Sequence record: JQ011316
Strand: one strand, 5' to 3'
Length of the DNA: 24,084 bases
DNA from: Escherichia phage TL-2011a
Positions 6,001-12,000 of the stretch are shown here, in pieces. A program made the position numbers. The first letter of the stretch is position 1. Each line of letters begins with the position of its first letter.

Positions 6001-9000
6001 CATCCGTCACGTAATTTACGGGTGATTCGCTCAAGTAAAGATTCGGAAGGGCAGCCAGCAACAGGCCACCCTGCAATGGCATATTGCATGGTGTGCTCCT
6101 TATTTATACATAACGAAAAACGCCTCGAGTGAAGCGTTATNNGTATGCATATAAAAAGGCCCTCACACTGGAGGGCAAAGAAGATTTCCAATAATCAGAA
6201 CAAGTCGGCTCCTGTTTAGTTACGAGCGACATTGCTCCGTGTATTCACTCGTTGGAATGAATACACAGTGCTTATTCGTACTAATAAAATACCCAATTTT
6301 CTGTTTCTTGGTTGTGTCCAAAGTTATATTCAATATCTGGTATTGATGTATCAATATTCTTCATCCCATCAACAAGAGTTGATACAACAGCTAAATCTTG
6401 TTTGATTCTCATTAAATGGTATTTCTTCCGGCGCAATAAACTTTCAATGGCAAGTTTCTTCGTTGGGAATGCAAAAGATCTTTCTGCATTTTTTGCTACT
6501 TTCTTAATTGCATATCTATTTCTCCTTTGTTTCCATTCCTGTAACCACTGATTTGGTGCTGGTTTAAAATTAACAATCCAATGCGCAGGAACCAACCATG
6601 CATAATGCTCTGTCTGATGAAAAGCTATATATTGAAGTGCGAATATTTTTATCCCATCTTCTTCAACTGTCGCCTGGAATCTCCAGAAAACAGGCATTCC
6701 ATCATGTTCAGTTTCTGATTCAGGAAAAGGTACGCTCCATGATTTTGTCATATCTCACTTCAAATAAGTGGTTTGCTGCCTAATTTCATTTTCTGGCGAC
6801 CAACACAAGTCACCTCGCCGTCAGTTGTTTTGATTTCCGGTAGCCTGCCGCGTAAATGGCTACGTTTGGAAGACATACACCAGTTTCTGGTTGCTTATGT
6901 CCAAACTCATTCGCGTACACAATGGCCGCTCGCTCCAGATTGCGTCTGTATTCTTTCTGTTGCCAGATCACGTCCTGTGCCATGAACTTAATTGGCTTAG
7001 CGTCTTCTATGCGCTCAGGCGTTTCGTGAGTACCTTTAGCCTGAATCTGCGCTCTGCTTAGAGTAGGGCGGTGTAATACTTCTGAACTTATTGCTTCTTC
7101 GCGGGCCAGTACGCCGTTAGCTAATGCCTTTGCCTTTAAACGCTCACGACGACGAGAACGTGAATTGCCTTTGAACTGAGTTCTGCGTGTCATATAGACC
7201 TCCTGATGAACTTTGGTGGTGTGGTAGGTGGGAGACCCATTTCGACCTGTTTCGGCCTACTTCAATTCGGCAATAGTCCCGCAGGCCTCGCCGCTTTACG
7301 TGCGACATATTCCCGTCCATGAACCCTTCACCACACCCCAAAGTTCACTTTGGTTATTGCGCTTTGTCAGCGCCGTAGATTCATATTCGAATCGTTGTAT
7401 ATTCACCGCCCTGGTGAGTAATGCGTCCTGCTGACGATGATAATAATGAACCAATAGTTCGACATTATCAAGAACTATTGGTACGAATTTTGGTGATTTA
7501 TTAACTCTACGAAGTATGATTCTGATATATAAGGAAATTTATTTTTGAAAATGTGGCTGATGAAGGTTATGCGGCAGGGATCATAACTGCATGGTTTAGC
7601 GAGTTACATCAATAAATACAATTGGTTATGTTTTTTAGGTGGGCGAACGTGAGGCAAAGAAAACCCGGCGCTGAGGCCGGGCTAGATTTTAAAGTATTTA
7701 TCTTTTAGAGATGTAGATGTAAAACTTTTCGCCTTTGAAAATTTTTTGTCATCAGAAGGGCTTATGAACTCATCTTTTTTGTAGGGAACCGCTAATGCTG
7801 CATCACGTCTGCGAGGCAGCTTGCTTACTTCCTCGCGCTTTTTCATGATCAGTTATCCTTTAATAACCTATACAGTTTTGTAGGGGTACATCCTGAGGAT
7901 ATTGTTAAGTTCGTAGCACGCCTTTTCCGCCCATCATCGTATAAACGAAAACCAGTAGTAGACGAATTTTCTGCGTCAAAAACTATAGACAGTATAGCGT
8001 CCCCAGACTTTTTTTGCCATTCGCATGTGCCGTTAGTTGGTTTCGTCATCTGTAGACGCCAGTCAAGAACGCCATCACTTATAGCTGAGAGATCGTTTAG
8101 TACATCTAGTACGGATTGATATCTTTCATTTGGATCTACATGAATGCATTTGTTCACTATTGTTATTAATTTTTTATGTATATGGGGAGGATACTCTTTT
8201 AATGGATAGCAGCCATTAATTATCGACTCTCTGAGTTGTTCAATCGTGCTAAATGCAGATCTTTCTCTTTCAAAATTATCATGTCCAACACACATTCTAT
8301 ATATGGTTAATCCTGCCTGATATATGTCATATGTGAAATTATAATCATTTGTTGATAAAGAAAAATATTCCGGTGGCACATGAAAATGATATCCAAACTC
8401 AGGCGCAGCTCTCGATTCCTCATTGACTAACTGAGATAATCCAAAGTCAGATAGCATGGCCTCATTTCTGTTTGATATCATAATGTTATTAGGTTTTATA
8501 TCAAAATGCATAAGACCTTTTGAGTGTATATGATAAAGTCCACTTAAAAATTGAATGGAATACCGTATTATCTCCCTGCTTGTAAGATTATTTTTTTTCA
8601 TTAATTGGTTTAGCGAACCATTATGATAAAATGGCATGGCTATATAGATATTGCTCTCACATTGAGCAGCATACTGAACTTGCACAATATTTGGATGTGC
8701 ATGTTTATAGAGAAGCCTTGCTTCATTAAAGTAGTCGTCGTGGTTAGTGTTTTCTTTTTTTTCTATTTCTTTAATCACCAAGTCATGAGCTAGGTGTCTG
8801 TCATGAGCCAGATATACTTTTGAAAAACAACCCTGTTCTTCTAGATCACTAATCCATTCGAATTCTACATCAGCTCTTTTGTATGGAGTTAGCATCCCCT
8901 TACCTCCGCAGATAGTGCAGCCAAAACAGCTTCATTTGTTTCAGTTGTAAAACCAGAATTATCGATTCCATTTATATTGCGGTGTGACTTCAATATTTCT

Positions 9001-12000
9001 TTATACTCGATCTCTGTTAGGTTCAATGATGATTTCATGCCAGATTTTCTAATAGTGTAATATTTTCTTACATCACTGCTTGAAAATGCTTCTTGAATAA
9101 CAGCTTCTATATAAAGGCGGTCAATGCTAAGATTATCAGAGTTTGATTCAGTAACGCGTATGGCAGCTAATTCAACATTATATAAATTAAGAATGTCGAG
9201 GATGTTATTTCTCACATACTTTAATTTTTCTGGTGTGTCTAAGGTCGAAGGTATTTTAATAACATCAACACATTTGAGTGCAGACTCATTAGTGCAATAT
9301 ACAACAAAAGATGTAACTTTGGGCGCCGCTCTAACACCTAGTATTCTCATTTTTTATATCCTATTTTAGAATCAGGCCGCATCTCTGCGACCATCCATCA
9401 TCCAAACGTCTCTTCACTCACCCGAAGAAGCAGCAATCCGGGTCAGCACGCACAAGCTCAAGCGCATCAGTCAGCGAAAGTTCAGTACTGTACTGATGCC
9501 ATTTCATATCCTTCCGCATCCAATAGATTTTCCATCTATCCAGAGAACGTATGTACTTGATTCTTGCTGATGGCAGGATGTTTGTTTCACCTGGATTGCC
9601 CTGCCACACGGGGCGCTGTTCGCCGATATCTATCGTTTGGTCATTGATGCTATAAACAATATCCAGTTCATTGCGGATATGTTCAGGCGGCCTTATGCTT
9701 TCAATGAATTGGTGAACTTCTTTTTTTACTGCTTGATATTCAAGGTCATTGAACGCCATCTATCCTCCTTACCCAAACGTCTCTTCAGGCCACTGGTTAC
9801 CAGCTATGTGACGATGAAGTCACGAACTTTTCAGCCACTCCCTTGCCTCGATGTCATCCAGATGGCGAGATTGCTTCAGAATACCAGCTACATACTCCAC
9901 CTTTGCTACTTGATGATAAGGCAACGTTATAGGCCTGTGATCCTGGTTAATGCTTGTAAATTGGTATTCTCCATCTCTGTCATAGCCAAGAACCTTAATC
10001 ATGTTGTGTCCTTCAACGGTTCTGACAAACACCTCATCACCCGGGAATACTTTGGTGTTAGGCTCAATGAGTACATATTCTCCTGATTTTATTCTGGGCC
10101 ACATGCTGTCTCCTTTCACACGAAGACCAAAGGCATCTGGATCATCGCTATAAATTTTGAGCCACCCATCGCGCTCTTCGGTCATCTCGATGGCACCATC
10201 AACACCAAGAATTGCCTCACCAACCACGCGCACTAACCCTTTTTTTAATTTGCCAACAAATGAAAGAGTATCTTCATCATTCGCTCCATTTAACGAAGTG
10301 CCGTGCTGAAGCCAAACAACATCAACGTTTAGAAATTTCGCAAGCGCATTCATTTTTTCCTGACGCGGTAAAGACTCAGCATTAAACCATTTGCTAACGC
10401 CTTTGGACGAAAGAGAAAGGGCACGGGCTATAGCCATTCCCCTACCATGTTCATCAAGACCAGCTTCTTTACAGGCTTGCGCTAGCCGCTGGGCGAATTC
10501 TTTGCGCACTTTTTCATTCTGAACCATGAGTACGATACTAAAGCACTTGCAAAAACTTTCAGTTCAACCATAATACGTACTGAAAGTACGAAAAAGGATA
10601 TTCCTATGCAAAATCTTGATGAGCCGATTAAAGGTGTCGGCATCCCTGAAGTTGCGAAGGCTTGTGGAGTTAGCGAAAGGGCTGTCTATAAGTGGCTCAA
10701 AAACGGCTTCCTCCCTAAGACTGAGTTTTTTGGGAAAACTAAATACGCATCAAAAATCGAAGAGATTTCTGGTGGCAAATATCAAGCAAGCGAAATGCTT
10801 GAAATAAGCAAAAAGAACCTTCTGGCTGCATAAGTAACACCGCTATTTTCACAATGGACATTCGTCCTACGTCGCTGACAAAGCGAGTCCCAATATATCT
10901 GACCAACTAAGGCCATATGCGTTTCCACGCATACCTTTCAACTAGCTATTCACTATTGGAAATCTTAAGAAATGGAACAAACAAGTTACAGCAAACTATC
11001 ACAGCGAGAAATTGATCGCGCTGAAACTGATTTACTCATCAACCTGTCAACGCTTACCCAGCGCGGTCTGGCAAAGATGATTGGCTGTCATGAATCGAAG
11101 ATAAGCAGAACGGACTGGAGATTTATTGCTTCGGTCTTGTGTGCTTTCGGAATGGCATCAGACATCAGTCCGATTAGCAGGGCTTTTAAGTATGCGCTTG
11201 ATGGACTCACCAATAAAAAACGCCCGGCGGCAACCGAGCGTTCTGAACAAATACAAATGGAATTTTAACAACATCCAGCGAGGTAATTATATGCGAAACA
11301 AAGGCTTTAATCCACCTGATACACACAAAGAAGCTAAGCGTTTGCGCTTCCTTCGTTCCATTGATGAAAGAACTCAAATCTCTTTTGTGAAAGTTGCCAG
11401 AACTGAGCTTCTGAAGGCTGAGGCGAGGGCGTTGCTCCCGTCTCTACCAAAAGAGGAGGGATATACGTTCATTCCAAACGCATTTCTGGAAAAGCTGCTC
11501 AAAGAAGACATATCCGTAAGTCAGTTTAACGATGTTCTTAAGGTCTTTCGTCAAGGCAGGTAGTTATGAGCAATACAGCAAAAATCTACGATTTCAGCGC
11601 CGCACACGAGCGCAGGAGCAACAGGATGGAGAACCAGAAAACTGGTTACATTCCGTTGTACCGGAGCATTCTGAAACAGTCATGGGCGAAAGATGTTTAT
11701 CTTCGCACCCTGTGGGAAAACCTTCTCCTGAATGCCACCAGAAAGCCATACAAAGCGAATTTCAAAGGTCATGAATGGCATCTGCAACCCGGTCAACTGG
11801 TTGTGACAGCAGCTGATTTAGGTCTTCAGTTATGCGACAGGCATGGCAAGCCAGCAAGCCGCGATCAGGTTGAGCGGATGCTTCAGGTTTTTGTGAAAGA
11901 GGGGATGATCACCATTGATGGAGAGAAGCAAAAAGGTCGTGTGATTACCATCACAAATTACCATGAATATGCTCAAAAAATGGACGATTCACCCGCACAT

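Follow-up and report, generated by a model that had tools for sequence, protein, structure and literature searches.

The window analysed here is a stretch of 24,084 nucleotides (nt) from Escherichia phage TL-2011a (sequence record JQ011316). On its minus strand the repressor gene cI is followed by four open reading frames (ORFs) encoding, in order of transcription, a DUF3024 protein of 113 amino acids (aa), a 153-aa protein assigned a RuvC fold, a 348-aa Hanks-type protein kinase (Stk), and a basic protein of 54 aa (Table 1); the kinase and the genes that accompany it are the subject of this report. An initial annotation of the window had proposed four minus-strand ORFs downstream of cI, closed by an intrinsic terminator, and both features are borne out: the ORF listing has all four where they had been placed, and a GC-rich hairpin, AGCCCGGCCTCAGCGCCGGGTT, with an 8-bp stem (6 GC pairs), is followed by TTCTTT and abuts the last stop codon. 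This terminator is annotated as tM in phage 933W and as tRM in phi24B.

Table 1. Features of the cI operon in the window, in order of transcription
Feature	Position	Strand	Basis
cI repressor, first gene of the operon	9820-10527	-	HTH_3 and Peptidase_S24 (Pfam); 100% identical to 933W cI
15-nt direct repeat TGAAGAGACGTTTGG, upstream copy	9773-9787	-	exact copy flanking DUF3024
113-aa DUF3024 ORF (933W L0084)	9418-9759	-	ORF listing
15-nt direct repeat TGAAGAGACGTTTGG, downstream copy	9402-9416	-	exact copy flanking DUF3024
153-aa ORF (933W L0083), first cassette gene	8889-9350	-	ORF listing
348-aa kinase ORF (stk)	7849-8895	-	ORF listing
54-aa ORF (933W L0081)	7682-7846	-	ORF listing
Intrinsic terminator (tM of the cI operon), closes the cassette	7662-7683	-	hairpin and T-run after the 54-aa stop codon

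Positions 7500-10600 are 99.9-100% identical to the immunity region of the Stx phage 933W and its relatives, and the entire window corresponds to positions 3175-27258 of Escherichia phage JLK-2012. The 933W record gives the order pM, oR1-3, cI, L0084, L0083, stk, L0081, and terminator tM; pM and oR1-3 lie just upstream of cI, at about 10520-10590 of the window. The four genes occupy the slot of the rexAB exclusion genes of lambda, as had been noted: they are on the same strand as cI, downstream of it, and ahead of the terminator and the PL/nutL/N region. Expression from the repressor promoter, also predicted, agrees with the pM and tM annotation of 933W and with transcriptomics of phi24B infection, in which cI, the DUF3024 gene, the RuvC-like gene, and stk shift together (log2 fold change -1.19 to -1.43; PMC10789677, Table 3); this shared change fits a single transcript. 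Candidate internal promoters in the region show no excess over chance (10 sites, 10.2 expected), and an Rfam search of 7200-10700 matched no family.

Within the operon the last three genes form a group of their own. The stop codon of the 153-aa ORF and the start codon of the kinase overlap by 7 nt (ATGCTAA), as first described, and only 2 nt separate the kinase stop from the start of the 54-aa ORF. The claim that all the genes are tightly coupled holds for these three and fails for the gaps between cI and DUF3024 (60 nt) and between DUF3024 and the 153-aa ORF (67 nt). The description of the block as markedly AT-rich divides in the same place: the last three genes have 35.5% GC, DUF3024 has 45.0%, close to cI (45.2%), and the window as a whole has 46.4%.

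The kinase Stk

The kinase is 100% identical across its 348 aa to Stk of phage 933W (AF125520) and has the same flanking genes; since the whole locus is 99.9-100% identical to that of 933W, with the same annotated gene order, the kinase is Stk. Its assignment to the Hanks type is supported by a match to Pfam Pkinase (PF00069; residues 21-260, E 2.2e-46) that, at 158.8 bits, lies far above the cut-off of 31.7, and by retention of the catalytic residues. Among 105 cassette loci K42, E58, H130, D132, K134, N137, D150, F151, E176, D190, and R258 never vary, and G152 is found in 104; the invariant set comprises the VAIK Lys, the αC Glu, the HxD Asp with the DxKxxN motif, DFG, the APE Glu, the subdomain IX Asp, and the subdomain XI Arg, and includes the Lys (VIKEI, K42) and Asp (HFD, D132) initially named as catalytic. 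At residue 131 the family has F, L, M, or Y but no R, and the loop reads DIKPNN, conforming to DxKxxN, so Stk is a non-RD kinase with a loop of the Ser/Thr type; its Gly-rich loop is degenerate (G22xxS25xV27). The family is widespread and constant in length, at about 345 aa. The kinase domain takes up approximately residues 1-265 and is followed by a fast-evolving C-terminal domain (266-348), for which no recognisable fold relative was found. The hidden Markov models (HMMs) that PADLOC uses to recognise Mad6 (E 7e-50) and PD-T4-6 (E 1e-37) align with Stk within its kinase domain alone (residues 20-295).

A NinI-type Ser/Thr protein phosphatase, a protein common among lambdoid phages, is encoded at 18987-19658 (plus strand) in the lytic (nin) region of the same prophage; it could erase Stk phosphorylation upon induction. 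In two otherwise identical E. coli prophage copies stk is broken and the partner genes are intact: one carries an internal duplication or insertion (locus L005, about 2607-3651) and the other a frameshift near codon 45 (locus L023, about 6587-6590).

According to PMC3681748 and PMC6356687, Stk of prophage 933W is a eukaryote-like tyrosine kinase that has little or no activity in uninfected cells, is activated on infection by phage HK97, and brings about exclusion by abortive infection, a finding that both credit to Friedman et al. 2011 (Mol Microbiol 82:567; pmid 21985444). The abortive infection by an Stx-phage Stk that the initial annotation had cited concerns the very protein encoded here.

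Linkage, spread, and inheritance of the cassette genes

The association of stk with its neighbours was followed in two sets of loci. The viral set started from the 153-aa protein in viral contigs and contains 17 diverged loci (51-85% identity); Stk is immediately downstream of the 153-aa gene in all 17, and whenever the contig of a viral locus reached through the RuvC-like gene runs past that gene, a kinase is present. The species set started from the kinase alignment, with one genome per species, and consists of the best 80 of the 179 species with a relative; a RuvC-like gene lies directly upstream of the kinase on the same strand in 80/80, with a gap in the alignment of -1 to +39 nt. The small ORF is detected by tblastn in 15 of the 17 viral loci, and the remaining two have a 55-56-aa ORF in its place that is too diverged for tblastn. 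A 45-70-aa ORF whose start lies between -32 and +13 nt relative to the stop codon of the kinase is present in 101/105 loci, compared with 13.7% at random positions (P 2e-81). The 54-aa protein itself is hydrophilic and basic and matches PHROG 4063 (E 2.5e-39).

The cassette spans at least five bacterial phyla. It is found in Gamma-, Beta-, and Alphaproteobacteria, Bacteroidota, Ignavibacteria, and a cyanobacterium, and also in Bacillus phage SPbetaL6 (OQ921346; 2986-4744 of locus L215), where a 167-aa RuvC-fold gene that keeps the Arg, a 350-aa kinase gene sharing 4 nt with it, and an ORF of 60 aa are all annotated as hypothetical. Among complete E. coli genomes 223 of 5,426 carry it.

The three genes also diverge together. 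Distances between loci correlate with those of the kinase for both the RuvC-like protein (Mantel r 0.85) and the small protein (0.80; both P 0.001). Where kinases share 40-50% identity, the values are 43% for the RuvC-like protein, 49% for the kinase domain, 25% for the C-terminal domain, and 17% for the small protein; the RuvC-like protein thus matches the catalytic domain of the kinase in its slow evolution, and the small protein is the fastest-evolving member of the cassette. All three genes are under purifying selection, with ratios of nonsynonymous to synonymous substitution (dN/dS) of 0.05-0.11 for the RuvC-like gene, 0.05-0.20 for the kinase, and 0.06-0.64, typically about 0.2, for the small ORF.

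These data bear on the simplest alternative, that Stk alone is the full defence system and the 153-aa and 54-aa genes are passengers or unrelated in function. Stk is the determinant of exclusion named in PMC3681748 and PMC6356687; single-gene kinase defences exist (PD-T4-6 and Stk2), one of which is among the HMM matches of Stk; and PADLOC holds neither partner. Against this stand the complete linkage, the overlap of stop and start codons, the occurrence in unrelated genomic contexts across phyla, the purifying selection, and the correlated distances: passenger genes would not have survived such divergence and mobility in linkage, and a kinase acting by itself is considered unlikely. That the three genes form a functional unit is judged very likely.

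The surroundings of the cassette vary. In Pseudomonas it adjoins Abi_2 and an integrase, in Acinetobacter it sits between prophage tail genes, and in Elizabethkingia it is next to an LlaJI/McrB-type restriction-modification (R-M) system and ArdA. The commonest families among 141 flanking ORFs are cI-type HTH/S24 repressors, integrases, M78 (ImmA/CapP-like) peptidases, dCTP deaminase, MADS, type I R-M, and phage structural genes; the PADLOC models of RmrA match 6/141 of these ORFs and those of mad2, capP/capH, and dCTP deaminase 3-4 each. By these raw counts the cassettes often lie in the company of other defence genes.

Such contexts also inform the question of whether the cassette serves mainly to regulate prophage or host, through control of lysogeny or host physiology, as the kinase module KKP of Pf prophages controls virion production (PMC11341870). 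The position of the cassette inside an immunity operon and the cI-type or ImmA-type regulators adjoining it in several species are in keeping with such a role. Many cassettes, however, lie outside prophage immunity regions, beside R-M, Abi_2, or tail genes, and the exclusion of HK97 is published (PMC3681748 and PMC6356687), so that a mainly regulatory purpose appears improbable; defence by abortive infection is the likely function.

DUF3024 does not share this pattern of linkage. The ORF initially called DUF3024-like is confirmed as such by Pfam (E 2e-31), and over residues 1-113 it matches positions 1-115 of the 115 in the PADLOC profile PDC-S43 (PDLC05018; E 5e-42), a candidate single-gene family without experimental validation. 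DUF3024 occurs in 143 phage records and the 153-aa gene in 40, more than 100 DUF3024 phages having no kinase. In Salmonella phage SE1Spa the repressor and DUF3024 are followed by a ParA/Soj-like 357-aa gene (3481-4554 of locus L213), with no kinase cassette in the slot. The 15-nt repeat that flanks DUF3024 has two exact copies in the window, where none is expected by chance; these copies could be the borders left by a separate insertion of the gene.

A reading in which all four ORFs, DUF3024 included, make up one defence module can draw on their shared operon and co-regulation and on the presence of DUF3024 upstream of the cassette in 6/17 diverged viral loci. DUF3024 is absent from the other 11/17, however, and gene calls place no DUF3024-like gene beside the Pseudomonas, Acinetobacter, or Elizabethkingia cassettes. 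With the disparity in phage records, the different downstream gene in SE1Spa, the difference in GC content, the flanking repeats, and a PADLOC candidate family of its own, DUF3024 is separable, and a single four-gene module is highly improbable. The suggestion in the initial annotation that the partner ORFs belong to a multi-gene module thus stands for the 153-aa and 54-aa ORFs, on linkage, co-evolution, and purifying selection, and falls for DUF3024, which is better regarded as a separate cargo gene of the cI operon and a candidate stand-alone defence gene.

Two further observations concern DUF3024 and one the slot. DUF3024 is still in place at loci that have just one copy of the 15-nt repeat, and excision at the repeats is therefore not demonstrated. 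A resemblance to AvrPto, a bacterial inhibitor of plant kinases, appeared as a single-sequence match to the PDB (E 0.07) and disappeared with the family profile; it is put down to chance. The slot downstream of the repressor, with its ParA/Soj-like gene in SE1Spa, looks like a cargo hotspot.

The RuvC-fold partner

The 153-aa ORF had been described as unrecognised, which overlooks existing database entries: RefSeq and PHROGs label the protein a Holliday-junction resolvase (RuvC-like). A Pfam search of the 153-aa and 54-aa ORFs gave no match, the NCBIfam RuvC model reaches only E 0.098 on the 153-aa protein and falls short of its membership cut-off of 163 bits, and a sequence-profile search of the family against the PDB found no RuvC and nothing else. 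At the level of structure, a RuvC/RNase H-like fold extends over the whole protein, and the structural matches include TEFM and Cas12k, which are RuvC-fold pseudo-nucleases. The database label is right about the fold and probably wrong about the resolvase function that it implies.

The active site supports this distinction. RuvC has a catalytic tetrad of D7, E66, D138, and D141 (E. coli numbering); in the 153-aa family R7 and R/K65 stand at the first two positions, position 137 is variable, and only E140 is kept. Of the 105 loci, 102 have R at position 7, one has K, two are gapped, and none has D; at position 65, 98 have R and seven have K; E68, R78, E82, and E87 are invariant; and at position 140, 104 have E and one has D. 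The profile alignment to E. coli RuvC on which the correspondence rests is weak (E 0.038) but in register (ILGID/ILGVR7 and FAIE/AAIR65), and in the structural model R7 lies in β1 and R65 at the end of β4, the sites of the first two carboxylates in enzymes of the RNase H fold. The position of the RuvC wedge residue F69 is occupied by Glu.

Searched exhaustively with the family profile, 1.84 billion representatives yielded no more than 442 clusters (253 at E<=1e-10), nearly all consisting of stand-alone proteins of about 155 aa. The same residue signature is present in the top 148 representatives, and position 7 is never Asp among them. In comparison with the RuvC resolvase, then, this is a small family, always paired with a kinase, with no match at the sequence level and with Arg in place of D7 and E66. 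With conserved Arg at two of the four sites where RuvC binds metal through a carboxylate, cleavage of junctions by the canonical two-metal mechanism is predicted to be unlikely; the strong conservation of the charged residues that distinguish the family suggests that it has kept a function of another kind.

That the protein is nonetheless an active Holliday-junction resolvase, serving phage recombination or acting as a nuclease effector under the control of the kinase, is what the database labels would suggest. Besides the substituted catalytic positions, the Glu at the wedge, and the poor NCBIfam score, the location of the gene speaks against it: it lies in the lysogenic operon and not in the recombination/nin region, which has its own NinG/Rap, and it travels with the kinase outside phages. 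An active resolvase is regarded as very improbable.

Working model and relation to known systems

The reading preferred here, and considered probable, is that the cI (PRM) operon of this 933W-type prophage carries two independent cargo modules, DUF3024 and a three-gene abortive-infection cassette with Stk as its effector. Both modules would be expressed in the lysogen, from an operon ending at tM. Module 1 would be DUF3024, a separable single-gene candidate; module 2 (7682-9350) would consist of the RuvC-fold protein, Stk, and the protein of about 55 aa. In the published part of the model, Stk is catalytically intact, stays silent in the uninfected lysogen, and is switched on by a cue that the infecting heterologous phage HK97 encodes; its activity then aborts the infection. 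The three proteins may act together, probably as a complex whose fixed proportion would come from translational coupling. The RuvC-fold protein would have a regulatory or sensory role without catalysis, perhaps as a dimeric scaffold that may still bind nucleic acid, and would hold the kinase inactive or license its activation, and the C-terminal domain of the kinase and the small protein would be phage-facing specificity elements or regulatory elements.

The roles of the two partners and the formation of a complex are what we infer from the features of the family, and any one specific role for the RuvC-fold protein is doubtful. In the most explicit version, which is speculative and more likely wrong than right, the RuvC-fold protein would be a dead sensor of a phage cue, either a nucleic-acid structure (for instance branched DNA from replication or recombination) or a phage protein directed at RuvC-like folds; its dimer would pair two Stk molecules, and the small protein and C-terminal domain would tune specificity.

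Several points weigh against the preferred reading or parts of it. HMM searches detect no homology of the small ORF between phyla (0/24 and 1/81). In a decoy-controlled test of alignment columns its Arg column scores 0.98 against a decoy maximum of 0.95 and its Tyr column, at 0.71, is within the decoy range, so a cross-phylum motif in the small ORF is not claimed. The equivalence of R7 and R65 to catalytic positions depends on the weak hhalign match and on position in the secondary structure. The acidic residues D52, E68, E82, E87, and E140 are still conserved in the 153-aa family, which leaves room for a non-canonical catalytic activity. The flanking families, given as bare counts, and the single-gene action of PD-T4-6 and Stk2 count on the same side, and the need for both partners is suggested by genomic patterns.

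The closest known system is 933W Stk itself, with the same protein in the same operon position. In the literature consulted it is treated as a single gene, and its partners, their conservation across phyla, and the altered RuvC site are not described there; a literature search, with incomplete coverage, found no paper on a defence system combining a kinase and a RuvC-fold protein. Lambda RexAB offers the same logic, abortive infection by a prophage against heterologous phages from PRM-transcribed, lysogen-expressed genes downstream of cI. The two systems have no sequence relationship (no Rex family occurs among the Pfam, PHROG, and PADLOC matches of all four proteins), and their effectors differ, RexB being a presumed membrane channel and the effector here a protein kinase.

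PD-T4-6 of E. coli, Stk2 of staphylococci, and Mad6 of the MADS system likewise use a Hanks-type kinase domain in anti-phage defence; the likeness stops at that domain, as they have no RuvC-fold or small-protein partners and leave the C-terminal domain of Stk uncovered. KKP is, like the present cassette, a multi-gene, kinase-based prophage module and acts through toxicity (PMC11341870), but it comprises two kinases and a phosphatase, whereas the cassette has no phosphatase and its partners are not homologous to those of KKP. With the eukaryotic double-stranded RNA-activated kinase PKR there is an analogy only, in the path from nucleic-acid sensing through a kinase to cell shutdown, provided that the RuvC-fold subunit senses nucleic acid; PKR unites sensor and kinase in one protein, and here they would be separate polypeptides.

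Elsewhere in the window, an IS3-family insertion (orfA and orfB transposase; 5080-6242, minus strand) lies between ssb and an L0079-like gene and sets JLK-2012 apart from 933W; it contains two N bases (6141-6142). Ten further ambiguous (N) bases at 3054-3237, within the bet (RecT-like) gene, look like an issue of quality in the source record. Downstream of Q, at 20228-21222, three tRNA genes are followed by tciA/tciB-like genes where 933W has stx2; in this window the prophage has 933W immunity and is not an Stx phage.

The identity of the kinase and the defence role of Stk are already known; what appears to be new is the split into two modules, the obligate linkage of three genes, and the remodelling of the RuvC-fold partner. 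Stk was among the first kinase-based phage defences described. To our knowledge its mechanism was never resolved, and current defence catalogues do not list it as a multi-gene system. The three-gene architecture redefines the experimental unit, since constructs with stk alone may mislead, and the remodelled active site corrects a widespread annotation as Holliday junction resolvase. For defence-finding tools the architecture supplies a three-gene signature, with kinase relatives in at least 179 species and the cassette in 4% of complete E. coli genomes, among them many Stx prophages of enterohaemorrhagic E. coli. If the RuvC-fold protein is a dead sensor, the cassette would be the bacterial equivalent, divided among subunits, of kinase immunity of the PKR type, and a phylogenetically broad new class of three-component kinase anti-phage systems would stand behind a gene known since 2011. 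The finding raises the question of how a bacterial Hanks kinase stays silent in the lysogen and is then triggered by infection.

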